This document shows positions 1 through 36,143 of a DNA stretch of 64,000 nucleotides, piece after piece. The stretch is from an uncultured archaeon (lineage in GTDB: Archaea > Asgardarchaeota > Lokiarchaeia > Sigyniarchaeales > SOKP01): the NCBI GenBank assembly GCA_964447495.1, contig CAYUTF010000005.1:2240-66239 (forward strand), given 5' to 3'. The stretch's first letter is position 1, and the number at the start of each line of letters is the position of its first letter. The position numbers were made by a program, and so were the translations under genes. Under the pieces are notes generated by a model that searched no databases, had not been told where the DNA came from, and was given only the letters and a program-made list of their open reading frames with translations.

Positions 1-146
1 TTCGTTCTTAAATTTAATGCCCATAACCAAAAGAATAATCCCCCTTCACTATAAATAACAAAAGCCACGGGTGTTAATAATCCAATTATAGCTAGAATAG
101 CACTACATATTGGTAAAATCCAGAGATATTTTTTAATTCCTACCAT
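1..146 (-). CDS. Hypothetical small membrane protein, 5' part only (runs off window start)
   Basis: ATG at 146-144 on the minus strand opens MVGIKKYLWILPICSAILAIIGLLTPVAFVIYSEGGLFFWLWALNLRT..., which is hydrophobic and open to position 1. Not in the ORF track because it is truncated. Confidence 0.3.
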   Translation of the reverse strand, partial: MVGIKKYLWILPICSAILAIIGLLTPVAFVIYSEGGLFFWLWALNLRT

Positions 147-222
147 TTTTTACAACCCTCAAGATAAAGATATATCAATAAGGAAAATAAAATTAATTAT
201 TTTAAATTATACTTTTCCTATT

Positions 223-1524
223 TCAAAATATTTTGGGTGGATCAGTTCTTAAATCCTTGATTTTTCCCTGTAATATTGGATCATTCGTTTCTTTTAACCA
301 TCTAAATAATTTGACTTTAAGCGTTTCTTTAATTGACTTATATTCAGAATTAGAGCAAAGATTATTCATTTCCGTAGGATCAGATATAAGATGATACAAT
401 TCTTCATCGGGACGAGGTTTCTTGATTAACTCCGTCATATATTTTCCTGTTTTGAAAGGGGCAGTAAATAAATCTATTTGATATAATGCTGGAAATTTTT
501 CAAAGTTCACAATATACTTATATTTCTCTGTTCTAATACTTCTCATGGGATCATAGAATTCATGAAAAGTTTTTTCAGTATAAATTTCTTTCCTAAAAGG
601 TTCAGCTTGGTTTCTAAGACACTTTAGAAAACTTTCCCCTTCAATATTTTTTGGGATCTTTGCTCCAATATAATCCAATATCGTAGGGAGCAGATCAATA
701 TTACTGATCATTTGACTAATTTCCTTTCCATTGCTAAAGAGATCCGAGTTAGGAAAAGACATTAAGAGTGAAGTTTTAATGCCAGGGTCGTAAAGCGTAC
801 ATTTAGCTCTTGGAAATGGTTCACCATGATCTGTTGTAAATATAAATAGAGTATTTTCCGCCAATCCGAAGGATTCTAAATGTTCCATTAATCTTCCTAT
901 TGTTTCATCAACTATGTGAATAGCACCATAATAGTCTGCGAAGTCTTCATGTATCATATCATTATCAGGTAAGTAAGGTGGCACCTTAACATTAACTGGG
1001 TCAACTGGATCACCCCATCCTCCAAATGGTCGATGTACTTCCCATGATCCGATACATGCATAAAAAGGTTTTTTAATATTTTTATGTTCTGACAAAAAGT
1101 CGCGATATTTCCTTTTCATTCGATTACAGGAATAGTTAATTACATGCCCTCTTTTACTCATCGTATCATATCCGAGTGTTTGGGCGTCCATCGACTCATG
1201 CTGTAATCCAAGTAAATGTGTTGTATATCCATTTTCTTTTAAATACATCGGAAGGGTTTTATTTGTTTCGGGTAAAGTCCAACCTCGATCCACTAAACCC
1301 ATTAATCCATTTTGATGAGGATAAAGAGATGTTTGTATGCTTCCCCGACTGGGACTGCATTGTGGAGCTGTACAAAAATAATTGTTAAATTTTATCCCAT
1401 CTCGAGCTACATTATCTAAATTTGGAGTTTTCAATGAATTTGGGGTTTGTTTTGAATCATAGCACCCAATAAATTGCCCTTGATCATGAGTGATAAACAA
1501 AATGATATTTGGTTTTTCCTTCAT
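223..1524 (-). CDS. Cys-type sulfatase (arylsulfatase family)
   Basis: N-terminal IILFITHDQG metal-binding start and a formylglycine motif C-S-P-S-R (CTAPQCSPSRGS). The size of 433 aa is typical. Confidence 0.85.
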   Translation of the reverse strand: MKEKPNIILFITHDQGQFIGCYDSKQTPNSLKTPNLDNVARDGIKFNNYFCTAPQCSPSRGSIQTSLYPHQNGLMGLVDRGWTLPETNKTLPMYLKENGYTTHLLGLQHESMDAQTLGYDTMSKRGHVINYSCNRMKRKYRDFLSEHKNIKKPFYACIGSWEVHRPFGGWGDPVDPVNVKVPPYLPDNDMIHEDFADYYGAIHIVDETIGRLMEHLESFGLAENTLFIFTTDHGEPFPRAKCTLYDPGIKTSLLMSFPNSDLFSNGKEISQMISNIDLLPTILDYIGAKIPKNIEGESFLKCLRNQAEPFRKEIYTEKTFHEFYDPMRSIRTEKYKYIVNFEKFPALYQIDLFTAPFKTGKYMTELIKKPRPDEELYHLISDPTEMNNLCSNSEYKSIKETLKVKLFRWLKETNDPILQGKIKDLRTDPPKIF

Positions 1525-1585
1525 AATATCAATTTTATTTTTTTGAGTATTTTAAAAAAGTAATAAAAAAAAGGATAAATAATTA

Positions 1586-2983
1586 TTATGCAGATAATTT
1601 CGCACGTTTCTCTTCATGTAGTTTATTTACGTCTTCTTTTAACTTCTCAAACTTTTTCTTAGTTATAGGAAAAAGTAGCATCATTACAATTCCGAAAGCC
1701 AGTGCTATTACTGGGAAAGTAAACATTAGCATTCTTAATCCAATTACGGTATCAGGGCCTGCTGTTTCTGGAGTAAAAACTCTCCATCCTACACTTTCAA
1801 ATACTGAATTTATTGTAAGAAAGATGAAGATTGTTGAGAGTCTTATAACTAAAGCATTTACACCATAAAAGCTTCCTTCTCTTCGAACACCTGTTTTAAG
1901 TTCATCTTCATCAGCGATAGCGGAAACTAAAGGATCTCTGAAAAATAAGGATCCTGATAAGCCAAGACCTACAAAAAAGAATGCTACCAAGCCAGATGTA
2001 AAATCAGATATCCAAATAAATGGAATTAATACAAGAATAAATGCTATCATCGATAAAATAAAGCCTATTCTCAATCCAAGTTTTAGAGTTACAAAACGCC
2101 ACAGAAAAATAAATATTATAGCTGATACAAAAGCTAGCCCAAGCAGCACTGATTGAAGCAATGCATCTGGAGTGTTGAGTACAAATTTCCCAAAGAGTGG
2201 CACAATAGTAGGAAGCATCCCGAATACATACCAATTAGCTAAAGCAGTTAATGCATAACAAATAAAAGCCTTATTTTTAAAAGTTATTTTTATAGACTTA
2301 AGAAATGATGGAGTAGTCGCCTTATCAATAACAAATTCAGCCTTTTCCTTAATACCCCATTTAATGAAGATAATAGCACCGATAGCCATAACAATTGCCA
2401 TAAAAATTCCAGTACCTATATAATTAGGTGCAAATTGGGAAAGGGTATAATCAGGTATGAAGAAACTAGGCACTATAAAAGCAAAAATGAGACCAATAAC
2501 AGAAAATATCTGTCTTACATTGTTTACTTTTGATCTTAATTCTAATGATTGGAACATCTCTGGAAAAAGTGAAGTTTGGTTGATACTGTATAAAGTATAA
2601 ATTGTGTCAAATAGAATTATAATTATTAAGAAATAAAAGAAGGTAATTATAGGAGATGTAGTAATTGGTGTCCATAGAAGAATTGTTATAACACAGAGTG
2701 GTATAAAGCTTATGATTATATACGGACGTCGTTTTCCCCATTTTGTATTTGTCCTATCTGAAATTATGCCCCACATAGGATCATTTAGGGCATTCCAAAC
2801 ACTCCAAATAATAAAGGCAATGGTAATCCAATCAGTTGGTAGACCGATAACAGAATAGTAAAATGTAAATATCAAGAATGTAAAAAATTGATAAGATAAG
2901 ACATCAGAAAATAGCCCTGAGCTATAAGCTAAGGTATGTTTTAAAGAAAACTGTTCTCTTTCTACATCAGACATAAATGTCAC
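1586..2983 (-). CDS. GPH-family (glycoside-pentoside-hexuronide) sugar:cation symporter, MFS superfamily
   Basis: About 12 predicted TM segments and a loop DRTNTKWGKRRPYI characteristic of MelB/GusB-type carriers. It lies 61 nt downstream of the sulfatase on the same strand. Confidence 0.8.
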   Translation of the reverse strand: MTFMSDVEREQFSLKHTLAYSSGLFSDVLSYQFFTFLIFTFYYSVIGLPTDWITIAFIIWSVWNALNDPMWGIISDRTNTKWGKRRPYIIISFIPLCVITILLWTPITTSPIITFFYFLIIIILFDTIYTLYSINQTSLFPEMFQSLELRSKVNNVRQIFSVIGLIFAFIVPSFFIPDYTLSQFAPNYIGTGIFMAIVMAIGAIIFIKWGIKEKAEFVIDKATTPSFLKSIKITFKNKAFICYALTALANWYVFGMLPTIVPLFGKFVLNTPDALLQSVLLGLAFVSAIIFIFLWRFVTLKLGLRIGFILSMIAFILVLIPFIWISDFTSGLVAFFFVGLGLSGSLFFRDPLVSAIADEDELKTGVRREGSFYGVNALVIRLSTIFIFLTINSVFESVGWRVFTPETAGPDTVIGLRMLMFTFPVIALAFGIVMMLLFPITKKKFEKLKEDVNKLHEEKRAKLSA

Positions 2984-3226
2984 TTTAAAATATTTATTTT
3001 AAATGTTGTTTTTATATTGATTTACTAATATTTAATAGTTTCTGATTTAGTAATAGAGTAGAATAATTGAAACTGATAAACTATACCACTATTAAAAGAC
3101 TTTGAGATATAGTAAAACCCATTTTTACAGATAGAAAACCGTCATATTAAATTTATACGGTTTCCTATTCCAAATTTAAAAAGATAATGTCTTTCCGTAA
3201 TTAAACTATTTGCTATTGTTTAACTA

Positions 3227-4453
3227 TTACATTACTTTTTTAAACAAATCTAAATATTTCTCAACATGTTTGGGTAAAAGAAATTCTTTTTTTACTTTAT
3301 CATGTCCTTTTCTACCCATTTCCTTAGCTTTTTTGGGATTCTTTAATAAATATAGAATTTTTTCAGCAGTTTCATCAACATTATTAACAAGAAAACCATT
3401 TATGCCATTCTCAATTTGAAGTTTGATTCCTCCAACGTTGCCCCCAATAACTGGAATTTTTTTCCAAAGTGCTTCAGTAACAGTAAGTCCAAAACCTTCT
3501 TTTATTGATTTCTGCAAAATTATATCCGAAACACGCTGAAAGGCATTTACTTCTAAATTACCTATACCATCAAGATTACTTAAGACATGAACATAAGGAT
3601 CATTTCCAATATAATCTCTAATTTTTTGTAACCATCTATTCCCTTCGGGATCGTCATGGGCTAAGCTGCCCACAAGAGCGAGTTGTATGGGTGTCTTCTC
3701 TTTAACGATTTTATAAGCATCAATTACCCCAAGAGGATCTTTCCATGGATCAAATCGAGAAACTTGAGTTATTAAAGGGCGATCTAATGGAATATACTTT
3801 TTTACTATATTTTTAGATTCTTCAATCGATAATTCCTCATTTTTTTTAGAAAAAGGATCAATAGATGGGGTGATTTGATAGATAAAATTCTTGAGACTAT
3901 CTTTGGCATATTCTAATTTTGTAAAAATTAAAGCATCGTAAAAAGCCAAATAAGGAGAGATTAATTCCCAAGCTTGAGGATTTCGATCCGAAGTATCAAT
4001 ATGACAGCGCCAGATCCACTTACCATGCTTACTTTCAGCAAAGTTAATTAGTGGGCTTGGTTGAGGATCATGAATTATATTGAAATCAGCATCAGGATGA
4101 ACTTGTTCATATGTAGATTTAGCTTGTTCAATGAATAATTTGACCTCCTCCTCGGTAAACTGAATACTTTTATCACCTTGCAATGCGTTATGCATTTTTT
4201 TTGAGATTTCGAAAAAAGCATCAGGAGCGGTAAAAGTTTTCCATTCTGTATTAATTCCTAATTCATTCATAAGTGGGACCATATTTTGTAAAATCTCTGC
4301 TACTCCACCACCAAATTTAGTAGAATTTACATGTAAAACAGACATATTACTGAACTCTTTAGAAAGTTTTAACAGTTTTTTTATTGAATTTTCTCCTAAT
4401 AATTTTCTATAGGCCTCTAACAAACTCTTTTTATCGTTTTCCATTAACTTCAC
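3227..4453 (-). CDS. GT4-type glycosyltransferase, trehalose glycosyltransferring synthase (TreT)-like
   Basis: N-terminal VNSTKFGGGVAEILQNMVP and a C-terminal GT-B region (EGFGLTVTEALWKKIPVIGGNVGGI). It is about 410 aa and divergent from a sugar ABC transporter, as in Thermococcales treT loci. Confidence 0.6.
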   Translation of the reverse strand: MKLMENDKKSLLEAYRKLLGENSIKKLLKLSKEFSNMSVLHVNSTKFGGGVAEILQNMVPLMNELGINTEWKTFTAPDAFFEISKKMHNALQGDKSIQFTEEEVKLFIEQAKSTYEQVHPDADFNIIHDPQPSPLINFAESKHGKWIWRCHIDTSDRNPQAWELISPYLAFYDALIFTKLEYAKDSLKNFIYQITPSIDPFSKKNEELSIEESKNIVKKYIPLDRPLITQVSRFDPWKDPLGVIDAYKIVKEKTPIQLALVGSLAHDDPEGNRWLQKIRDYIGNDPYVHVLSNLDGIGNLEVNAFQRVSDIILQKSIKEGFGLTVTEALWKKIPVIGGNVGGIKLQIENGINGFLVNNVDETAEKILYLLKNPKKAKEMGRKGHDKVKKEFLLPKHVEKYLDLFKKVM

Positions 4454-13565: not shown

Positions 13566-14006
13566 TTATTTAGGATTAAATGGGCCAAGTTCTTTAATGT
13601 GATTTGTAAATTCAGTTATTATTTCTGCAAAACGTTTTCCTTCAGAAGCACTAACCCATTCTAATCGAATTCTCTTAGGATCTATTCCAAGTTGTTTAAT
13701 TATAATATTATGCAATCTGTTAAATCTTTCTTGTGCATACTCATTCCCAGAAATGTAATGACAATCGCCAATATGGCACCCACTTATTAAAACACCATCT
13801 GCCCCATCATTCAAAGCTTTCAATACAAAAGATGGGTCGACTCTACCCGAACACATTACTCGAATTATGCGAATATTAGGAGGATATTGAAATCGTGAAA
13901 CCCCGGCTAAATCTGCTCCTGCATAGGAACACCAATTACAGCAAAATACCAAAATTTGGGGCTCAAATTTAGTTGCTTTTGATTTTCCTTTTGTTTTTGA
14001 CATCAA
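13566..14006 (-). CDS. mvhD: MvhD-like (methyl-viologen-reducing hydrogenase delta subunit family) [2Fe-2S] protein, all-Cys form
   Basis: [15 protein letters not shown] ... [10 protein letters not shown] ... [11 protein letters not shown] are MvhD hallmarks. The likely true start is ATG 14003-14001, overlapping the hdrA TGA stop (TGATG) and preceded by GGAGGGTGA. Confidence 0.85.
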
Positions 14007-17000
14007 TCACCCTCCATAGGTGTTTTAACTAATAAATAAGAATCGATCATGGCTCCGATCTGGTTGAAATCGTAATGCTTTACAGAAATAGCGTTTATAG
14101 GGCAAGTTGCGGCACAAGTTCCGCACCCCTTGCATAGAGCAGAGTTAATATGAGATTTTGTGATTATAATAGTGATTTCTTCGAACTCCTTAGTTGCATC
14201 TATAAGATCTATTGCATTATATGCACATACATCTTTACATTTTCCACAGCCAATACACTTTTCAGAGTCAACTTCAGCTACAAGTCCAGAAGTCTTAATC
14301 TCACCCGCACTTAAGAATCGGCTTGCTCTCCCTGCAGCTCCGTTTGCTTGAGAAATAGAATCTTGAATATTTTTTGGCCATTGGGCACATCCGCATAAAA
14401 AGATGCCATCCGTGGCAAAATCAAGAGGTCTTAATTTCACATGAGCTTCAAGGAAGAATCCAGTTCTATCTAATGGAACTTTAAGCATTTTAGCTAATTC
14501 TTCAAGATTATCCGCAGGGATCATCGGGGTCGATAATATGATAAGGTCAGTTTCAAAATCAATGTCTTCTTGTAAATTAGTATCAAAGACATTTACTTTG
14601 AATTTTTCTTGTGATTTTCCTTGTGAAATTTTTGAGATTTCAGGGGGTTTATCTAAACTATAGCGCAGAAAAATCGCATCCTTTCTTCGTTCACGATAAT
14701 AATCTTCAAATTCCTTTTTGGCCATTTGAAGATCGCGATAAAGAATAAGAATTTCAAGATCGGGCTTTAACTCCTTTAGTATACCTATATTTTTAATGGA
14801 TACAGCACAACACACATTTGAACAATACGTAATACCTTCTTTTTGACGCGCATTTACACATAAGATAGTAGTAACCCTTTTGATTTTTTCAAGCCACGTG
14901 ATATCTCCGCTTTTCAAGCGTTCTTCTAATTCTAATTGGGTAATCACATTCTTATTTTTTCGATCATATTGAAATAATCCATCTGGTTTGTATTCATTTG
15001 CTCCTGTAGCGACAATAATGGTCCCAACTTTCAATTCTTTGCTCTTCTTCTTAGAATTTTTAATCGTAATGTCATAGTTGCCTATGTATCCTTTAATATT
15101 TTCAATTGTGGTTGAGAGATGAATCTCGATGTTTTTATGGTTTTTTACCTTATCTATAATCTCATTAAGATAATTTGATGCATCTTCTTGGATGGGATAT
15201 AAAATATTAAGATTGTTAAGATTTCCTCCCAAAATTTTCTCTTTTTCGATTAAATATATTTTAAATCCTTGATCTGCGATATTTAACGCAGCGGTCATTC
15301 CCGAGACACCCCCTCCTATAATAAAAGCACTCTGAATCATTTTTAAGGTCTCTTCTTTTTGCGGTCTAATGAGTTTCGCTTTAGAAACTGCCATTCGTAT
15401 AAGATCTTTTGCTTTCTCAGTTGCCGCCTCAAGTTCGTTCATATGCACCCAAGAACATTGATCGCGTATATTAACCATCTCGAACAAATACTTGTTCAAT
15501 CCCGCTTCCAGACAAGTTTCTTGAAAAAGGCTTTCATGGGTTCGTGGAGTACAAGAAGCTACAATAAATCGATTTAAATCCATTTCTTGGATAACCTCCT
15601 TGATTCGTTCTTGCGAATCACTAGAACAAGAATAAAGATTTGCTTCACAATGAACTACATTTGGTAGTTCCTTTATGTATTCTACAACTTCGGGGACATT
15701 AACATATTTCCCTATATTAATACCACAATGGCATACCAATACTCCGATTCGTGGCTCATCAGTAAGTTCTACTTTCTTTTCGGGTACTTTTATTTCTTTT
15801 TCCTTAGTCTCGGTAAACTTTTCCTCGTTTAAAAGGGAAGCAACTTTAGCAGCCACACCACTCGCGTCTGCAACTGTTTCCGGGATGTCCATTGGACCTT
15901 GACAGAATCCACAAAGGAAAACACCTTCTTTAGAGGATTCTGATTTTGAAAAATAAGATTTTTCTTTAAAAAAATTATAATCATCTAATTTAATGTTAAG
16001 AATATTAGCCAGCTCTTTGGTGCCATTCGAAGGAATAAGAGGAGAAGCCAGAACAACTAAATTTGCTCGAAAATCGGCAAATCCTCCATTTTTCAAGTCT
16101 TCATAATGGATGATCAAATCATTGGTCTCGGGATCTTCTTCTATCGTACTGATTTTGGTCTGAAAGTAAGTCACTCCATATTCGTCTTGAGCACGTTGGG
16201 TAAATTCATAGAAATTTTTACCATAAGCCCGAATATCGTGACGAAAAACAAAGCATTGAGTACTTTCAGAATGTTCTGAAGTAATAATCGCTTCTTTTGC
16301 CGTGTACATACAACAAACACTAGAACAATAAGGAACCCCTTCATGCAAATCTCGGGATCCAGCACATTGAATAAAAGCAATTTTTCCAGGCTCTTCGTGG
16401 TCACTTGGTCGAAGAACATGCCCTCCAAAGGGTCCAGAAGCGCATAAAATCCGCTCATATTCTAACGCACTCACAACATTTGGAAAATGGTATCCCCATC
16501 GAGCAGATAATTCTTCTGCTTTTACATCGAATCCTGTCGCAACCACAACTGCTCCAACTTGTAGTTTAATATCTTTTGGCTCTTGTTCATAATCTATAGC
16601 TTCTGCTTTGCAGACTTTCTCACATACTCCACACACGCCTTTAGTTATTTTTAAACATAATTCGGGATCAATTAAATAAACCGGAGGGACGGCTTGAGGA
16701 AATGGAATATAGATAGACTTTCTCTTGCCCAAATTCATATCAAAAAGATTTGGAACCTCGATTTTTGGACATTTTGACGCACAATCTCCGCATCCTTTAC
16801 ATTTTGTCTCATCAATATACCTAGGTTTCTTCGTGACAGTTACATTGAAGTCTCCTCCCTTTCCCTCTAATTTTTTAACTTCGCTATAGGTTAATAATTC
16901 AATATTGGGGTTTCGAAAGACCTCGACCATTTTTGGAGCGAGGATACATAAAGAGCAATCGTTTGTTGGAAAGGTTTTATCAAGCTGAGCCATCCTTCCC

Positions 17001-17113
17001 CCAATAGAAGGTGTTCTCTCTACAAGATATACTTTAAATCCTAATTCCGTTAAATCAAGAGATGTTTGAATTCCAGCTATCCCACCACCAATCACCAGAA
17101 CTGAACCTTGCAT
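14003..17113 (-). CDS. hdrA: HdrA-like flavoprotein with duplicated HdrA modules (1036 aa), all-Cys form
   Basis: Two FAD folds ([10 protein letters not shown] and [10 protein letters not shown]), the [11 protein letters not shown] motif, inserted and C-terminal 2x[4Fe-4S] ferredoxin motifs ([44 protein letters not shown]), and an internal HdrA N-domain (VCHCGINIG...[10 protein letters not shown]). Confidence 0.85.
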
Positions 17114-17117
17114 TCTT

Positions 17118-18359
17118 TTATGCCTCCTTCTTTTTTATTTTTACAAAATTCATAATAAATTCTGTAAAATCTAATATATCTAAATGAGCAATGTCCTCAT
17201 AATCGTTTTGAAGACATCTGAAATGCATAATGCACTTTGGACAGCTAGTCACCATCATCTGACCCGCTTCTTTTGCTTCTAATAATCGTTTATATCTTAA
17301 CGCTTTGGATCGTTCATTACATCCAATCCAACTCCCAATCCCACAACATAAGGAGTCTTCCTTATGATGGACCATTTCCTTGAATTGAGGCCCAGATTTA
17401 TTCAAATGGTAAAAGATTTCCCGTACTTTTTCCATCATATTATTCTCTTTAGGAAGAAATCTACTCATTCGGCAAGGATCGTGAAATGAATAATTAATAT
17501 CTTCCTTAATATCCTTACTAGGTTCAAATTCGATAATACCATCTTTCCACTTTTCATATATATATTCAATAATGTGTTTTACTTCGAATCTTTCTCCAAA
17601 ATCCTTAAAATATTTGGGATAATCTATTTTGAACGTACGATAGCCTTCAGAACAGGTAGTAATAATGGTTTTTGCTCCTGCTCGTTCGAAATTTCGTATA
17701 TTTTTCTCTGCAAGTCTAAGAAAGGCTTCGAGGTTGCCATGACCCCAATATAAATCATGACCACAGCAATATTCATCCTTAAGAACAACAATCGGTTCGG
17801 ATTCAGTCTTGTTTAATAATTTAACCGTATTGATCGCAATAGGGTCAAGATCATCAAATTCAAATTTAAAATATGGAAGACAACCTACATGATAGAGAAC
17901 TTCTCCTTGTTCTGCTATCTTGCATCCTTTTGGAATCCAGTCAAGATTTCTTTCTGGTTGCACTTGAGGTTTACTCATCAGTTCTGAAATCGATAAATAG
18001 ATGCCCTTATGAGCAGTATAGTTGTCAGGATCGAATTCATAAGCTTGAACCATTTTATGGCGCGCCACTCGAACGATATTCGCGAAGTTTATATCTTCGG
18101 GGCACTTCTGAAGGCAGCTATTACACATTAGACAATCCCATAGCACTCCTGATTGAAGGACTTGATCCTCAAACCCTTCTAAAATTCTCTGAATAATACG
18201 ACTTGGGGTGAATTTTTGTACTTTGCTTAGCTGGCAGACCCCAGAACATCGAGCACATTGATAGCATTGCTTCAGTAATGATCTCAATGAAAGAGTAGTT
18301 GAATCCTCTACCAATTTTTTATTCAATTTTAAGTCTGGTTCTTTTTTAACCTCAGTCAT
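17118..18359 (-). CDS. HdrD-like Fe-S/CCG-domain protein (fused HdrC-type ferredoxin plus HdrB-type CCG domains)
   Basis: CYQCARCSGVCQ and CLMCNSCLQKCP cluster motifs, followed by two CCG motifs (YCCGHDLY, LCCGIGSW) and DPCRMSRF / TSCPKC. Confidence 0.75.
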   Translation of the reverse strand: MTEVKKEPDLKLNKKLVEDSTTLSLRSLLKQCYQCARCSGVCQLSKVQKFTPSRIIQRILEGFEDQVLQSGVLWDCLMCNSCLQKCPEDINFANIVRVARHKMVQAYEFDPDNYTAHKGIYLSISELMSKPQVQPERNLDWIPKGCKIAEQGEVLYHVGCLPYFKFEFDDLDPIAINTVKLLNKTESEPIVVLKDEYCCGHDLYWGHGNLEAFLRLAEKNIRNFERAGAKTIITTCSEGYRTFKIDYPKYFKDFGERFEVKHIIEYIYEKWKDGIIEFEPSKDIKEDINYSFHDPCRMSRFLPKENNMMEKVREIFYHLNKSGPQFKEMVHHKEDSLCCGIGSWIGCNERSKALRYKRLLEAKEAGQMMVTSCPKCIMHFRCLQNDYEDIAHLDILDFTEFIMNFVKIKKKEA

Positions 18360-18364
18360 GATGA

Positions 18365-19495
18365 TTAACCTTCGATTGTTTTCATAAATTTTTCCCTTCT
18401 GTTATGTTTATTTTGAGAAAAAGCAGCAATGAGTTCCTTCATTTTTTGTTTCCGATCTTCATTAAGATCTAATTTTTTAATTATCCCGCTATTTAATGCC
18501 TTTTCAAATATCTCCTTTCCCTTTTTAGTTCTTGGAATAACAGTAGTATATTTCTCTATTGAGCCGAGCCCTCCAAAAGAAATATCTGAATAAATGTTTG
18601 TAAAGTCTGCGCATGCATTACAGGCGGGACGCATATAGGGTGCTAAATGATTAAAAGGAACATGAATTACCCTGTTCCCTACATTTGGATCCTTTAAGGT
18701 GAAAATTACGTCTTCTTTAATATTTATCTTAATAATATCTCTAAAATTTATGTTAAAATCCTTTTCAAACTTTTTAATTTGGGATTTTTCAAAGAAAAAA
18801 TTTTCATAACAAAATAGACCTAAACATACCTCTATATTTTGCGATGGTGTGACTCCTAAATCTTTCATACACGCAATTGTATAGAGTTGACACGGTGTTC
18901 CTACCACCGCCAGCTTTTTAAATTTATAATGATTCAACTCAGGAATGGAATGAGTATAAGTGCTAAACTTTTGAATTTCATCTAATTGGGGAGTAATATC
19001 TAACTTTGCTCCTGAAGCTTTTAGTAGATCAGATTTACAATCTGCAAAAGTCGCTTCCCTTGAAAATGGAGCTTCGGTTTTCGATACTACCGCACCCTCA
19101 ACCATCTTATTTTTGATTAAAAAGTAAAGGATTGAGTTCACCACACCTCCATCAGTGCCGTACTCTAGGAATTCCTTATCAGTGGCTTGACAAGAATAAA
19201 TATCATCATAGTTTCCTAAAGGCATGGAAGAAAAATCAGTAAATCCATAAGTTTTATTCAGCTGGTCATCTAATATATGAGTTTGAGGACAAATATAATA
19301 ACAGATACCACACTCTAAGCACTTATCTTTATTAATATACACTGGTGGCTTATATTCGTCTTTAAAACCGATAACATCAAATTCTGCTGAACTACAAAAG
19401 CTCACACAGCCTCCACATTCTTGACATATTCCCTTTTCGTGTACCTCTTTTATGAGATCTTCAAAAGTTTTTGTACTCATGATAGATTTATTCAC
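18365..19495 (-). CDS. FrhB/FdhB-family flavin/Fe-S protein (F420-hydrogenase beta-like), paralog 2
   Basis: N-terminal CQECGGCVSFC / CLECGICYYICP, then GTDGGVVNSILYFL, VGTPCQLYT and CNACADFTNIYSDISFGGLG family motifs. It overlaps the upstream frhB-like gene by 8 nt. Confidence 0.75.
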   Translation of the reverse strand: MNKSIMSTKTFEDLIKEVHEKGICQECGGCVSFCSSAEFDVIGFKDEYKPPVYINKDKCLECGICYYICPQTHILDDQLNKTYGFTDFSSMPLGNYDDIYSCQATDKEFLEYGTDGGVVNSILYFLIKNKMVEGAVVSKTEAPFSREATFADCKSDLLKASGAKLDITPQLDEIQKFSTYTHSIPELNHYKFKKLAVVGTPCQLYTIACMKDLGVTPSQNIEVCLGLFCYENFFFEKSQIKKFEKDFNINFRDIIKINIKEDVIFTLKDPNVGNRVIHVPFNHLAPYMRPACNACADFTNIYSDISFGGLGSIEKYTTVIPRTKKGKEIFEKALNSGIIKKLDLNEDRKQKMKELIAAFSQNKHNRREKFMKTIEG

Positions 19496-20996
19496 TTAGA
19501 TTTCTTATTTTATCATAGGGACTCTTACAATTATTTCGTTTAGTACCCCCAATTTTTTCCACTAAAAATAACCCAGGCTTGACTTCTTTGAGGCTTTTAG
19601 ATTCAATATCTCCATTTTTCACTAACTCATTATAGATAGTGTCCGCCTCTTTGGTCCGCGTAATTACTGAAGACCACCCATCTTGAGACCCAATGGAGCC
19701 TACTGAAAAGTCTGCATAATCGGATGTTAAATCCTCACAATAATGGCAACTGTCCCGAGCATATTTCTTTACCTCTTTGAGTGGAACATCTAATTGCTCT
19801 CCAGATTTTAATCGAATGATAAACTTTCCACCTCCAATATTCATCTTAGTCAATTCATTAATATCCTTGTCGAATTGTTCCTTAGCTAGTTGAATGATTC
19901 CCTCATATGGAAATGATTCCATACAGAAGAGCCCTATCTTGTATTTAATATTTTTAAAGAACGGAAGTCCGCTCGGAAAAAGAGTACCTTTCTCTAAAGC
20001 CTTCATCATACAAGGAACCCCTACAAAAGCAATTTTTTCATACTTTTTTGCCTGATCGATGATCGACAAGGACGGAGAATTCGCATATTTCGTGCCCGCC
20101 GTCTTATAGAGTTCCTTCACATTCTCAATAATTACCGGTTCTGGTTTCCATAGTTGATCTGAATGTTGTACTGCAATTACTGCATCAACAAGGTTTTTTT
20201 TCAATAAATATTCGGCGATGGTAGTAACGATCCCTCCATCTTGACGTACTTTTATGATCTCGTCATTCTTTGTGCTTCCCGAATAGGTGCCAATATACCC
20301 TCCAATTTTATCTGACCAATTCAAATTTTTATCTAACTTCTTAATCGCTTCATTCATTTGGTCTATAGAAAAGGAACGAGGGCAGACTGTAAAGCATAAC
20401 CCACACTTCATGCATACATTATCGTCGATTTTAAGCGTATTCGCATCAACCTCGATCGCATTTACAGGACATATGGCAGCACACCAACCGCATTGACAGC
20501 ACGCACCAGCATCATATACGATGGAAACGGGTTCAAAATAGTGTTCAATAAAAGCGGGTTCAAGTTCTTTAACTTGATATCGATAAAAATACTCTTTTAC
20601 CTCGACTTCCTTCTCTTCTCCTTTAATTTTTTTAGTGACCTTTTTGATTTTTACTTCAACAAGTTCCTTTACATATCCCTGCTCTTTTAAGTATATCACA
20701 TCTCGGATAACATTTTCTGGGGGAAATTCCTTGATAACATCCATAATCTCTTCTAAAAATAAGGGTTCTTTGCCTCTTAAATACTCTAAGACGATTTTAC
20801 GCTCCGTTTCAGCATCAACCATAGCATCCAAAATTGCATAGTATTCTTGTTCCCCATATTTTCCTGCTTCAAGAATTTCGTCCTTAGCTTCATAGAAAGC
20901 GCGGATCTGAAAGTTCTTTGACGCTTCATAGGTGGCATCCATCAATTCTTTGGGAGACACCCCTTCAAATAACTTACTATTTACTATTTGAACCAT
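19488..20996 (-). CDS. FrhB/FdhB-family protein with an N-terminal extension of about 150 aa, paralog 1
   Basis: CCQCGWCAAICPVNAI / CMKCGLCFTVCP, VRQDGGIVTTIAEYLL, VGVPCMMKAL, and CHYCEDLTSDYADFSVGSIG. The N-terminal extension has no recognised motif. Confidence 0.75.
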   Translation of the reverse strand: MVQIVNSKLFEGVSPKELMDATYEASKNFQIRAFYEAKDEILEAGKYGEQEYYAILDAMVDAETERKIVLEYLRGKEPLFLEEIMDVIKEFPPENVIRDVIYLKEQGYVKELVEVKIKKVTKKIKGEEKEVEVKEYFYRYQVKELEPAFIEHYFEPVSIVYDAGACCQCGWCAAICPVNAIEVDANTLKIDDNVCMKCGLCFTVCPRSFSIDQMNEAIKKLDKNLNWSDKIGGYIGTYSGSTKNDEIIKVRQDGGIVTTIAEYLLKKNLVDAVIAVQHSDQLWKPEPVIIENVKELYKTAGTKYANSPSLSIIDQAKKYEKIAFVGVPCMMKALEKGTLFPSGLPFFKNIKYKIGLFCMESFPYEGIIQLAKEQFDKDINELTKMNIGGGKFIIRLKSGEQLDVPLKEVKKYARDSCHYCEDLTSDYADFSVGSIGSQDGWSSVITRTKEADTIYNELVKNGDIESKSLKEVKPGLFLVEKIGGTKRNNCKSPYDKIRNLSE

Positions 20997-21130
20997 TGAG
21001 TCTTCATTTTAAATTTTTTTCTTAAAAAATCTAATTTTTACTACTATTTTCCAACTAGCTCCCTCCTGAGCAAGGAGTGTTATCTTATAACCAAAATTTT
21101 CTTATAAGAATCATTCAATGGGAGCTGATA
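20997..21130 (-). promoter_or_regulatory. Candidate SECIS-bearing 3' region of the hdrA-vhuD selenoprotein pair
   Basis: Minus-strand RNA ...CAGCUCCCAUUGAAUGAUUCUUAUAAGAAAAUUUUGGUUAUAAGAUAACACUCCUUGCUCAGGAGGGAGCUAGUUGG... Complementary pairs read directly: AGCUCCC/GGGAGCU, UCUUAUAA/UUAUAAGA (A-rich 11-nt loop, AUGA one nt upstream), and CUCCU/AGGAG. Not folded computationally. Confidence 0.3.
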
Positions 21131-21557
21131 CTAATTCTTTGTTACCTTCTGTCAAATTAATCGGATTGGGACCAATTCTACTAATCTTTTCATACGCATC
21201 TTCAACACTTTTTACTAATTTTTCTGCTTCTGCACTACTACACCAATACATATTCGCTCGTTGATTACCAAAACCTCGTTTTTCAAGTATCCTGTTAGCA
21301 AGATCTATATGTTTTTGAGCTGTGAAATTACCGGCTTTAAATTGACACTCATTAGGTCTTCATCCTACAACCATTACTCCATCTGCACCTGTTTTAATCG
21401 CAAATAAAATATGCTTTACATCAACTCTCCCTGTGCATTTTACTTTGATTATTTTCACATCAGGAGTATATTTAAACCGCGAGACTCCTGCTAAATCTGC
21501 GGCACCATAACCTCATTTTAAGCATGCAAACATGATAATCTTATATTTATGTTCCAT
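21111..21557 (-). CDS. vhuD: VhuD/MvhD-like selenoprotein with two in-frame TGA (Sec) codons
   Basis: Absent from the ORF track. ATG 21557-21555, preceded by GGAGG (21570-21566), overlaps the hdrA stop (AATGGAACATAA). The translation is [46 protein letters not shown]...GADGVMVVG-U-RPNECQF... TGAs at 21515-21513 and 21362-21360 align to Cys in [15 protein letters not shown] and [12 protein letters not shown] of the paralog at 13566..14006. Confidence 0.75.
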
Positions 21558-23499
21558 TTTCTGCGCCTCCTTGTATAATTGCTTCAATTTCAGCATATAA
21601 TTGATAATCCCTATAATACTTTATATCAATTGCTTGAGTTGGACAACAAGATGCACATATACCACATCCGTCGCAATTAATGTCATCAACAACCGCTTTA
21701 TTATCTTTAATAGTTATGGCTCCTTTAGGACATTCCTTTTCACATCGCCCACATGAAATACATAAATCAGGGTTAATTTCAGCAATTATCAATTCAAGAT
21801 CAATTTCACCTGAGGATGTTAGCTCAACTACTTTACTAGCAGCAGCTCTCGCTTGAGATACTGAATAAGCAATATCTTTTGGTCCCTGTGCAAATCCTGC
21901 GATAAATATCCCTTTTGTTTTCGTTTCTTGCGGCATTAATCCAAAATGCGATTCTGTCAAAAAACCATTTTTATCGACATCTAAATTTAGTACTTTGGCA
22001 ATTTGCTGAGTTCCGCGAGAAGGGAGTGCTGCAGTTGATAAGACCACTAAATCTGCATCAATTTTAATAATTTCATCAGTTAGAGAAGAATAAACCCTTA
22101 TTTCAACATTTTTGGTATCAGGGTTTTCTGTAATGCCACCAACTTTTCCACGAATCATCCGAATATCTGAATCTTTTGCCCGTTGGTAATATTCTTCGAA
22201 TCCTTTTTCATTGGTTCTAATGTCAATATAACAGATCGTTATATTAGCGTCGAGTATTTCCTCTTTAAGTAATTTTGCATTTTTGAGAGCCAGCATACAA
22301 CATACTCCGCTACAATAAGTCCTTTCGGTGTCACGGCTGCCAACACATTGGATAAATACAATCTCTTTTGGTTTTTTTAAATCAGATATTCGAGCGATGT
22401 GACCTTCTAATGGACCGTTCGGTGCTAACATTCTCTCAAGTTGGGCTTGATTTATAACATTATCATACTCACCATATCCATACTCACCCATAGGCTCATA
22501 TATGTCCCACCCTGTAGCAATTATTATAGACCCTACTTTAAAATTTACCTCTTCTGGCACTTGGCTAAAATCTATGGCATTTAGCTCACAAACATCAACA
22601 CAACTGAAGCATTCAACACAAGTATCTCTATGAATATCATATAAAAAAGGTACCGCTTGACCAAATGCTATATCAATTGTTTTCCGAACCCCAAGATGTT
22701 CGTCAAAATAATTGGTTATGAACACTGGGCAGACCTCCGAACATGCTCCACACCCATTACAATCATTATTAATGAATCGGGGCATCTTTTCTACCGTGAT
22801 TTCATAATTTCCGACATATCCCTTAACGTTTCTAACAAAACTATAGCTCAATAGTTCTATATTTTCATGACGGTTAACTTCTAACATCTTAGGACCACAT
22901 ATTCAGATGCTACAGTCATCTGTTGGAAATGTTCTGTCCAATTGAGCCATTCTTCCACCAATTGTAGTATTTTTATCAACTAAATATACCTTAATTCCCT
23001 GATTCGCTAAGTCTAAGGCAGCATTCATCCCTGCAATACCTCCACCAACAATTAAACATGCTTTTTCTATTGGAACTGTTCTTATAGGTATTATCTCTAA
23101 AGTTTTAGCTCTTTCTATACCGCTTTTGACTAAAATTTTTGCTTTTTCTGTTGCTTCCTCTTTATCAGCGGTACACCAACTGCAATGTTCTCTTACATTA
23201 ACCATCTGGAAGTAATAGGGGCTTAAATCCGTTTTTGAAATTGAAGCCCGATATATGGGTTCATGTGTCCTTGGAGTTCACGCAGACGCAACTACTCTCG
23301 TTAATTTCTTTTCTTGAATATCTTGGATTATTTCATTTTGTCCACTTTCAGTGCAAAGGAATGCATTAGTTTTGGCAACCACTACGTCATCAAAAGTTTT
23401 AGCAAATTCAACAAGTTCATTACAATCAACTTTACTTCGAATATTTATGCCTCATTGACACGCGTAAAAACCAATCCGATGCTGGGTAGTTTTTTCCAT
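21547..23499 (-). CDS. hdrA: Heterodisulfide reductase subunit A (HdrA) selenoprotein with three in-frame TGA (Sec) codons
   Basis: Track ORFs 21547..22887 and 22903..23205 plus untracked 23206..23499 form one 651-codon frame (ATG 23499-23497, TAA 21549-21547). TGAs fall at 23454-23452 (codon 16), 23280-23278 (codon 74) and 22905-22903 (codon 199). They align to Cys of the 14003..17113 paralog: YACQ-U-GINI vs LVCH-C-GINI; VASA-U-TPRTHE vs [10 protein letters not shown]; DDCSI-U-ICGPKM vs [12 protein letters not shown]. Confidence 0.85.
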
Positions 23500-23952
23500 C
23501 TTTTTGAGTTTTCTCACCTCATTTTTTACATTAATGTCTAAATATCCGAATCTATAAAAGTTTTTCACCTTTAGATCAATTTCTTTAATATAACTATTTT
23601 TATAGTTCGAATATATGAATGTTTTAAATTTCTATATTAATCATTTACATTTTAATGATATTTATACTTATTAATTTATTTATTATACCTTATCCGTTAT
23701 TCTTTAAATGTTATTTTACAGAATGGAAAATTTTGCAATATATTGATTAACTCCAGATTGAAAAGTAACATTTATTTAAAGCAATTCATCATGACAAAAA
23801 TCAATGTTTAATCCTAAAAATAAGAGATCTTATAATTTATATCAATGAGATTTTAAAAGTTGAAAATCTAAATATAAATAGCTATAAATTAGTGAGAATT
23901 TTTTTTTTTATTTCTTGTATTTAATATCAGTAATTAGATTCTTAGAAATCAT

Positions 23953-34547: not shown

Positions 34548-36143
34548 ATGACGAATCCTAACTTCCCTCCCGAAGAGATATTCGAAAACAGAGCTGAATT
34601 TGGTTTATACAATTCAATAAGGATGCTAACCAAGATTATTGAGTCATCAGATGATAGTAATAAAAGAAAAAGTGCGATAAAGTATTTAGGATTAGTAAGT
34701 AAAGAAGCACCAGCATATAAAGAAGAGTGTTTTGATAGTATAGAAAACATTTTAATCTCGGAAGAGAATATTGAAATTAAATGCGAAGCGGCTAAGGCTT
34801 TAGGAAAATTAAAACTGAAAAAGGCTTTAAAACCTTTACTATGGATTTTTGATAAATCCGTAGATAACAACGATTTAAGGCTTTCAATATTAAAAGCGAT
34901 CTATAAAATTACATTTGAAGATGCTGAAATTGAACTCTTCATAAAAGAATTAGATTCTTCTCATATTGAAATTAAGGAATATGTGAAAAATCAGTTACTT
35001 ATCCTCAATCCTGAAGTATTGGTAAAAAAATTAATTAATTCTTTACCTAATAAAAATCTTTCAAATAAAAATAAAGCGGAGATAATAAAGTTAATTGCTT
35101 TTGAAATTTCGAGTATAAATTCATCCTTTGAGGGTTCAAGTTTCATAGAAGTAAAGTATCCCGAAATTCTCTCAGAATTAATAAACCAAAAAGAAGTATT
35201 GCTGACAGAAATAACTCAAATATTGAAGACAGATGATAAAAGTCTACTTGAATCATCAATTTCGATTCTTAGTATACTTAAGGATAATATTAAAGAAGAT
35301 ATTATTAAGTTACTCCTTACAGATAATTTCATCATAAAAAAAAATGCAATTACAATTTGTGGTAAACTTCAATTAATTGAGGCTGCAGACTTAATAGTTC
35401 AAAACTTGGATAATCTCTATAATGAGGTAAGCATAGCTTCAATCGAGGCATTAGGAGAGATTGGTGATCTTACAACTGTACCTGATTTACTTGATATTCT
35501 AAATGTTGAAGATATCAGTTTTGAATATTCTGATATTGATATGAAATTCCAAATTATGGATGCTGTAAAAAAAATTTATTTAAAGCATGATCAAATATCC
35601 TATAAGGACTTATATCAATCTTTAGAAAAGGAAAATGACACTATCAGGGCGAGCATCGCATTTATTTTAGGAGAGATAGGAAGAGAAGAATTTATACAAC
35701 CATTAATACGACTATTGAAGATTAAAAACGTAGATGTTAGAAAAAATATAATAATAGCTCTAGGAAAAATAGGACATATCGATGCTTTAGATAATTTAAT
35801 TGATATTATTAATGATGATAGTGCATATTGGCTTATTAAAAAAGTAACTACTGATGCTATATATAATATCTTTCAACAAAATTCGTATAAGATTGATAAA
35901 AATACTAAACAATTGAAATCGGAATTAAATAAAAAAATAGCTATTATTATTGAGCATTTAAGAGAATCAGAGAAGGAAAATTACAAAGTTAAATTAGGTT
36001 TAATAAAATTCTTAGAAACTTTCGGAGATACAAAAGCTTTAGATGCTTTATTGAGAAGAGTTAATGATTTTCATAGAGTAGTTAGAATTTATGCTTCTAA
36101 TGCGATTAAAAAAATCGAGGAAAGATTGGAATTAGGCAATTAA
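34548..36143 (+). CDS. HEAT-repeat (PBS-lyase HEAT-like) protein
   Basis: Recurring units such as EAAKALGKLKLKKALKPLL, SIEALGEIGDLTTVPDLLDIL, IAFILGEIGREEFIQPLIRLL, and IIALGKIGHIDALDNLI. Confidence 0.7.
   Translation: MTNPNFPPEEIFENRAEFGLYNSIRMLTKIIESSDDSNKRKSAIKYLGLVSKEAPAYKEECFDSIENILISEENIEIKCEAAKALGKLKLKKALKPLLWIFDKSVDNNDLRLSILKAIYKITFEDAEIELFIKELDSSHIEIKEYVKNQLLILNPEVLVKKLINSLPNKNLSNKNKAEIIKLIAFEISSINSSFEGSSFIEVKYPEILSELINQKEVLLTEITQILKTDDKSLLESSISILSILKDNIKEDIIKLLLTDNFIIKKNAITICGKLQLIEAADLIVQNLDNLYNEVSIASIEALGEIGDLTTVPDLLDILNVEDISFEYSDIDMKFQIMDAVKKIYLKHDQISYKDLYQSLEKENDTIRASIAFILGEIGREEFIQPLIRLLKIKNVDVRKNIIIALGKIGHIDALDNLIDIINDDSAYWLIKKVTTDAIYNIFQQNSYKIDKNTKQLKSELNKKIAIIIEHLRESEKENYKVKLGLIKFLETFGDTKALDALLRRVNDFHRVVRIYASNAIKKIEERLELGN

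Follow-up and report, generated by a model that had tools for sequence, protein, structure and literature searches.

A eukaryote-like SECIS of Lokiarchaeota, the lokiSECIS, was defined as an AUGA directly 5' of a 9-bp stem, an 11-nt loop in which the first five positions are A-rich and the terminal G usually follows an A, and GA (AA in some genes) 3' of the stem (Mariotti et al. 2016, PMC4989117). In the hdrA-vhuD gene pairs a single SECIS lies after vhuD and serves up to six UGAs over ~2 kb; it may overlap the coding sequence, the AUGA then supplying the stop codon, and hdrA stops with UAA or UAG, never with UGA (PMC4989117). An Asgard survey of eSECIS-like elements in more than 400 genomes described an AUGA_AA core in hdrA and frhD of the Lokiarchaeia, one element being common to both genes, and a type I model with a GA_[G/A]A core, an upper stem of 7-15 bp and a loop of 8-20 nt (Huang et al. 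2024, PMC11227280). The shared lokiSECIS has been proposed as a link between the archaeal and eukaryotic Sec systems, a significance that is owed to these 2016 and 2024 papers. Asgard archaea have no known SBP2 (PMC4989117), and in the one heterologous assay of a Loki element the hairpin of a vhuU.2 gene, whose folding energy is predicted at just -6.9 kcal/mol, showed no activity in Methanococcus maripaludis (PMC11881835).

The stretch of DNA analysed here, 64 kb long and called the window below, carries such a gene pair on its minus strand. Translation and Pfam FAD and Fer4 (4Fe-4S) domains identify hdrA, encoding heterodisulfide reductase subunit A (21547-23499, 650 aa), and Pfam FlpD (PF02662, E = 3e-42) identifies vhuD (mvhD/frhD), encoding the hydrogenase delta subunit (21111-21557, 148 aa). 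The vhuD start at 21557 lies inside the 3' end of hdrA, with an 11-nt overlap of both genes, and an SD-like GGAGG precedes the vhuD ATG. The stop codon of hdrA is UAA, which fits the published argument that a UGA at that spot would be recoded. Translation bore out the original prediction of five UGA codons in two overlapping cistrons, with three in hdrA (codon 16 at 23454-23452, codon 74 at 23280-23278 and codon 199 at 22905-22903) and two in vhuD (codon 15 at 21515-21513 and codon 66 at 21362-21360). The closest catalogued relatives of this VhuD are in the Lokiarchaeia FrhD selenoprotein list of the PMC11227280 supplement, from which the exact VhuD sequence of the window is absent.

Loci for comparison were taken from a scan of one genome per species (four loci, one titled Promethearchaeota) and from a metagenome scan (33 loci). 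Positions 16, 74 and 199 of hdrA are TGA in 19/19 related loci covering them, positions 15 and 66 of vhuD are both TGA in 30 loci, with locus L035 ending after its first vhuD UGA, and all 136 in-frame stops at Cys-aligned positions across the relatives are TGA, in a conserved context of flanking protein sequence. In many related loci position 49 of hdrA is a further, fourth UGA, and L002 adds a fifth at position 300. It is scarcely credible that these UGAs do not specify Sec, i.e. that the genes are pseudogenes, or that UGA is reassigned or read through genome-wide, and that the hairpins are incidental. Gene callers do fragment both genes, as such a reading would have it, but the unanimity of TGA at the Cys-aligned positions and the conservation of the protein around them speak against it, as does the use of TGA to terminate eight of the 45 long ORFs of the window, where UGA is therefore still a stop codon. 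Moreover, known selenoproteins have the canonical Sec site of HdrA, near residue 200, and both Sec sites of VhuD (PMC4989117). Judged by these alignments, the UGAs of hdrA and vhuD are genuine Sec codons.

Two observations on related loci may be added here. In L002 (positions 1-3462, Promethearchaeota MAG DZ1S.191) the hdrA TGAs align to positions 16, 49, 74, 199 and 300 and two more are found in vhuD, placing seven UGAs upstream of one SECIS, compared with the 'up to six' quoted in PMC4989117. The DNA of the window recurs in L038 (JGI 3300031551) and L039 (SRR8556706), where public gene calls break hdrA to a fragment of 446 aa and vhuD to fragments of 32 and 46 aa, illustrating the routine mis-annotation of such selenoprotein genes in metagenome catalogues.

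From the end of vhuD to the next ORF, which has its ATG at 20996, there are 114 nt, the spacer length originally given. Measured to the AUGA described below, the UGAs lie at distances of 248 and 401 nt (vhuD) and 1791, 2166 and 2340 nt (hdrA), matching the predicted separation of up to 2.4 kb. The complete module at this site (21057-21126, minus strand, ~70 nt) is a three-way junction, delineated by its MFE fold, by a covariance model and by covariation. It is closed by helix I, of which the 5' arm AGCUCCC (21120-21126) lies in the last vhuD codons (Ala-Pro) and pairs with the 3' arm GGGAGCU (21063-21057), a helix that RNAalifold also found independently. Residues 21111-21117 form the 5' strand of a putative kink-turn (K-turn), in which U21117 and G21116 contribute to a 2-bp C-stem, A21115-A21114-U21113 would bulge, and G21112 and A21111 would form the sheared pairs. 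The AUGA (21114-21111) thus sits directly 5' of the helix II stem, and its UGA (21113-21111) is the vhuD stop codon. The 5' arm of helix II, UUCUUAUAA (21102-21110), opens with a U at the variable 3b position (U.U here), and its other eight positions are Watson-Crick paired, UCUUAUAA (21109-21102) with UUAUAAGA (21090-21083), around the A-rich 11-nt apical loop GAAAAUUUUGG (21091-21101), of which the last base is G. The returning strand (21078-21090) comprises the 3' arm UUAUAAGAU (21090-21082), the core AA (21081-21080) and C21079 and A21078 of the C-stem, and leads into side hairpin 3, (C)UCCU-UGCUC-AGGA(G) (21063-21077), in which CUCCU (21077-21073) pairs with AGGAG (21067-21063). All three complementary pairings that had been predicted are therefore present, the one inaccuracy being that GGGAGCU had been placed at 21062-21056, one base off; the prediction of an AUGA followed by a hairpin with an A-rich 11-nt loop was correct.

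The element (21126-21057, minus strand) lies at the 3' end of a coding sequence and combines AUGA, a nine-position stem, an 11-nt loop and AA 3' of the stem, with one copy for the hdrA-vhuD pair. On these sequence features it is very probably a lokiSECIS, of type I with the AUGA_AA core variant, and the single Sec signal shared by hdrA and vhuD. The shared lokiSECIS at this locus is a correct rediscovery of an already published system, of which the window provides a further clear instance. The background given with the prediction, that eukaryote-like SECIS elements were reported in Lokiarchaeota, is accurate (PMC4989117), and the sharing between hdrA and vhuD was published as well. The proposal of a eukaryote-like SECIS in the post-vhuD spacer serving five UGAs is upheld by the agreement with the lokiSECIS definition, by covariation, and by the covariance model, which has its only significant match there in the window and in each related locus.

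There is no essential difference from the lokiSECIS of Mariotti et al. (PMC4989117), which has the same AUGA, stem and loop, the same overlap with coding sequence and the same proposed reach of one element over ~2 kb, and is likewise missed by the standard SECIS tools. The window copy departs from that consensus at three points: its stem base is a U.U, its core has AA where the consensus has GA, and its loop ends in GG instead of AG. The first five loop positions include four A's, and the terminal G is preceded by a G instead of an A, as in L005. The element also fits the type I model and the AUGA_AA variant of Huang et al. (PMC11227280). With eukaryotic SECIS elements (Rfam SECIS_1), which form a K-turn bound by SBP2, it shares the 3' placement, the proposed distant action on several UGAs and A's in the apical loop that are predicted to be unpaired. 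In a check of the eukaryotic SECIS quartet the AUGA and the loop A's were present, the 3' partner being AA in the window and GA in most relatives. Unlike the eukaryotic elements it has an upper helix of 8-9 bp instead of about 12-15, no Rfam match, and a three-way junction with a 2-bp C-stem in place of a simple helix I, and it would serve a bicistronic message in a lineage from which no SBP2 is known (PMC4989117). The SECIS elements of Methanococcales and Methanopyrus are alike in their 3' UTR position, putative here, and in the genes they serve; that of Methanococcales vhuD has AUGA...GAC/AAC around its main stem and an extra stem, and the GAC/AAC trinucleotide is found here too. The element nevertheless differs from euryarchaeal SECIS in being without the GAA_A internal loop and the three G/C pairs, and whereas methanogens have a SECIS of their own described for each selenoprotein gene, here there is one per gene pair.

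Taken alone, the 74-nt element has an MFE of -19.3 kcal/mol (z = -2.29, 6/200 shuffles being as stable), and its MFE structure is exactly the three-helix, three-way junction. Folding of the 151-nt stretch around it, the check that had been suggested, disappointed in that the energy was not significant (z = -0.93), and the 74-nt element and comparative data were used for this reason. A loose AUGA-stem-loop-stem-RA pattern matches four times in the window compared with 2.3 times in shuffles, so that in this AT-rich DNA the motif is not discriminating by itself. It is therefore the position and the conservation of the element that make it significant, and not its sequence taken singly.

The conservation set comprised the 31 loci with VhuD at least 65% identical, representing 27 distinct sequences. 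The arrangement AUGA + 9 + 11 + 9 + GA/AA is found at the vhuD end in all 31 loci, in exactly one copy each. Among the distinct sequences GAAUGA is invariant (27/27), the apical loop is always 11 nt long (27/27 vhuD loci) with A36-A38 and the final G invariant, and the 3' dinucleotide of the core is GA in 23/27 and AA in 4/27 (the window, L002, L007 and L022). RNAalifold applied to the 27 sequences predicted helix II and helix I independently, with compensatory changes in 8/14 pairs. For the full structure 92-93% of cells are paired, compared with no more than 57% in slid controls, double-sided changes occur in 10-11 of the 20 pairs, and for four of five measures none of 500 shuffles attained the observed value. 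All three predicted pairings thus proved conserved in orthologous loci. Helix II is paired in 100% of cells, with four pairs changed on both sides; its basal position is variable or non-Watson-Crick across the relatives and the remaining eight positions account for the complete pairing. Helix I is paired in 95% of cells and has compensatory changes in 4-5 of 6 pairs, e.g. GCUCC:GGAGC in the clade of the window versus CCCC:GGGG elsewhere. Hairpin 3 is paired in ~79% of cells, with a C-G, C-G core that is invariant or nearly so and a loop of the form NGCNN; MAFFT registered this hairpin wrongly in five loci, and the alignment fitted by covariance model is better but biased towards the model.

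In 21/27 distinct loci the UGA within AUGA serves as the vhuD stop codon. Most loci read AUAGAAUGA (21119-21111 in the window) as Ile-Glu-stop (UGA), whereas in six (L001, L009, L010, L011, L014 and L016) vhuD is in the other frame and ends with a UAG stop at -4, and AUAGAAUGA is still kept. Its retention across both reading frames places the constraint at the RNA level rather than on the protein, and it is apparently the SECIS that determines the C-terminal residues of VhuD, not vice versa.

The conserved core also has the sequence layout expected of a K-turn. In 26/27 loci the G that precedes AAUGA is paired to the C of a conserved GAC/AAC, and the pair adjoining this G-C covaries (AU in 14, UA in 5, GU in 3). 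The 3-nt bulge AAU is invariant, the GA/GA core is found in 23/27 loci, and at 2b.2n the window and three other loci have A.A, the rest A.G. We infer from this layout a simple K-turn whose 2-bp C-stem opens into a three-way junction. It resembles the consensus sequence layout of the simple kink-turns bound by L7Ae (box C/D RNAs, rRNA Kt-7) in the G-C pair closing the C-stem, the 3-nt AAU bulge, the tandem G.A/A.G, the variable 3b.3n and the regular helix that follows, and differs from them in that the C-stem is only 2 bp long before the three-way junction and that 2b.2n is A.A in the window.

The 27 sequences were used to build a covariance model (R1), with which the whole window was searched without filters. 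The model's sole significant match in the 64 kb is at 21045-21134 (88.7 bits, E ~ 3e-24), and each related locus likewise has exactly one strong match (81-103 bits), at the vhuD end. It found no match in the hdrA leader (23500-23950), in the hdrA coding sequence or in the region 21550-23950 as a whole, nor was there one in the upstream flank of any related locus. These results bear on the view that the hdrA UGAs are recoded by local elements, either bacterial-type hairpins 3' of each UGA or a 5'-leader SECIS as in Methanocaldococcus fdhA. The 1.8-2.3 kb that separate these UGAs from the element, across a cistron border, are unusual, and 5'-UTR SECIS elements do occur in methanogens (PMC11881835), but such local recoding is very improbable here. 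Sliding RNAalifold over the hdrA-vhuD-SECIS alignment of 15 loci showed conserved structure at the SECIS only (E = -8.6 kcal/mol, SCI 0.5-0.66), the windows after all five UGAs, where a bacterial-type hairpin within ~40 nt and inside the coding sequence was looked for, reaching just 0 to -2.6 kcal/mol. A pattern scan for a euryarchaeal GAA_A-type SECIS (lower stem, GAA/A internal loop and three G/C pairs) returned none in the operon and none in the window. Rfam gave no SECIS family at E <= 10, whether 6 kb or just the 121-nt stretch was searched. The leader and intragenic positions that the original prediction had named as the alternative were thus searched by covariance model, sliding RNAalifold and GAA_A scan, and no SECIS was found there. 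The match to standard SECIS covariance models that it had envisaged did not materialise in Rfam; this is documented lokiSECIS behaviour, and as archaeal, bacterial and eukaryotic SECIS tools all overlook lokiSECIS (PMC4989117), it is not evidence against the element.

Two further candidates were considered in these scans. A relaxed GAA_A match at 21365-21339 was rejected, as it overlaps a UGA codon itself and shows no conserved structure. The second-best match to the covariance model (35536-35624, plus strand; 21.7 bits, rough E ~ 1e-3) is probably due to chance, having AUGG in place of AUGA and lying in the middle of a 531-aa ORF (34548-36143); it does have an 11-nt A-rich loop and a nine-position stem followed by GA, in AT-rich DNA.

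The lower part of the element is conserved together with the core. Its constant components are a C/G-rich closing helix, often over the last (Pro) codons, a putative K-turn with a 2-bp C-stem and helix II, and a CC...GG side hairpin with GC in its loop. Huang et al. found no conserved nucleotides of internal loop or lower stem across families, whereas here the whole lower part is common to the elements of vhuD and of PrxL (FFRGNWU-type) selenoprotein genes. Using the vhuD-derived model, we detected the entire module after such PrxL genes on other Asgard contigs (37-46 bits, E = 1e-8 to 3e-11); with three of the four PrxL elements added, the fourth having missed the E-value cut-off, double changes extend to 14/20 pairs at 93.3% pairing. 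The presence of the whole module in both hdrA-vhuD and PrxL suggests its transfer as a unit. We therefore propose, tentatively and with the balance leaning the other way, that the functional lokiSECIS is a conserved three-way junction of ~70 nt rather than the simple K-turn hairpin that was published. The conservation of the module may go beyond published models, as the core, upper stem and apical loop are all that is modelled in the main text of the 2016 paper, in that of the 2024 paper and in a 2026 review, and the main text of Mariotti et al. makes no mention of the closing helix and side hairpin seen here. No paper connecting SECIS elements and archaea with a three-way junction of this kind came up in a literature search, priority remaining uncertain with the 2016 paper covered in its main text only. 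If the proposal is right, the closing helix and the side hairpin might provide additional determinants for recognition or stability in a lineage without SBP2. The conservation of the lower part could inform the design of constructs with which an Asgard SECIS is first tested for function or structure. What the present analysis adds to the published system is a quantified covariation test, negative results for every alternative SECIS location, and the conservation of the lower part within and between families.

A competing explanation of the lower part is that at least helix I and hairpin 3 are a terminator or a structure for 3'-end stability, and that only the AUGA hairpin is the SECIS. A run of U4-U5 directly follows the G-rich 3' arm of helix I in most relatives, so that termination or 3'-end stability is a serious alternative function or a supplementary one, and published SECIS models require just the core, upper stem and loop. 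The window, though, has no U run adjoining helix I, its U6 lying ~30 nt further on; the whole module, helix I and hairpin 3 included, recurs after the unrelated PrxL genes, and hairpin 3 is present even in a vhuD clade that is only 47% identical. We consider the explanation unlikely on this evidence; as a dual role is possible, the terminator and SECIS readings are in any case compatible. A terminator and promoter scan flagged hairpin 3 only, on the wrong strand, by bacterial-type rules that are uninformative for archaea.

Several related families show variations on this architecture. The distant clade just mentioned (L029-L034) is GC-richer, and its VhuD, ~47% identical, has one Sec (position 66) and Cys at 15; in the accompanying hdrA, positions 16 and 74 encode Cys and in-frame UGAs are absent. 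GGAAUGA...GAC is preserved in the element of this clade, as is a side hairpin (CCCU-ACGC-AGGG); the upper part is longer, with an apical mini-stem (type-II-like), and the model scores the element at only 12-15 bits. A Pro codon (CCN) among the last codons is part of the closing-helix 5' arm in VhuD (..A/T-P-x-E-stop, 21120-21126 in the window) and in some PrxL genes (..N-P-x-stop; L050, L052 and L053), and this common terminal Pro codon would agree with a copying of the SECIS module between genes together with a few terminal codons. Sec-containing PrxL genes of the INUPxCRWH subfamily (L040-L049) are without an AUGA...GA lokiSECIS and have another conserved three-way junction ~5-100 nt after the stop, made of a helix I (GAUUUGG/CCAAAUC), a 9-11 bp helix capped by an A-rich loop of ~10-17 nt, and a hairpin in which the loop UAGCCAC is invariant. 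RNAalifold gives this junction 23 pairs, eight of them with compensatory changes, and it may be a SECIS variant without a K-turn. In L050-L056 a PrxL selenoprotein gene stands beside a gene for an Arf/Ras-family small GTPase, and all but L052 also have a Sec23/24-like gene; these are eukaryotic signature proteins and confirm the Asgard origin of the contigs.

The mechanism that we would propose for the shared lokiSECIS begins with hdrA and vhuD on one mRNA, as their 11-nt overlap and the SD-like sequence before the vhuD ATG would imply. RNA past the vhuD stop would fold into the K-turn, with its G-C closing pair, AAU bulge, and sheared G.A plus A.A or A.G pairs, bearing the 8-bp helix and the 11-nt A-rich loop within the three-way junction of closing helix and side hairpin. 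A putative SECIS-binding factor, archaeal EFSec with Sec-tRNASec, or both could then bind this fold, no factor of the kind being known from Asgard archaea (cf. SBP2, PMC4989117). Looping of the mRNA might carry the complex to ribosomes paused at any upstream UGA, and cistron borders would therefore be irrelevant. At the vhuD stop UGA, which would lie within the K-turn core, the ribosome would itself have melted the SECIS, so that this UGA would terminate. The recoding of five to seven UGAs over two cistrons and more than 2 kb by a single 3' element would be the most extreme action at a distance known in Sec decoding.

Downstream of the module the rest of the spacer (20997-21056, minus strand) is A/U-rich and includes the U6 run (21029-21024); from its sequence it may be the transcript end, the promoter region of the next gene, or both, and the SECIS may lie either in a true 3' UTR or in the intercistronic spacer of a longer operon. 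That gene (19488-20996, minus strand; Pfam PF04422 and PF04432) is FrhB/FdhB-like, is not a selenoprotein gene, and is a syntenic neighbour, an FrhB-like ATGGT start being found ~100-123 nt after AUGA in most related loci. The region 14003-20996 (minus strand) as a whole holds two FrhB/FdhB-like genes, a CCG-domain HdrB/D-like gene and a 1036-aa HdrA-like fusion with two FAD/NAD domains, which points to a larger cluster of the electron-bifurcation type, with no hydrogenase large subunit in view.
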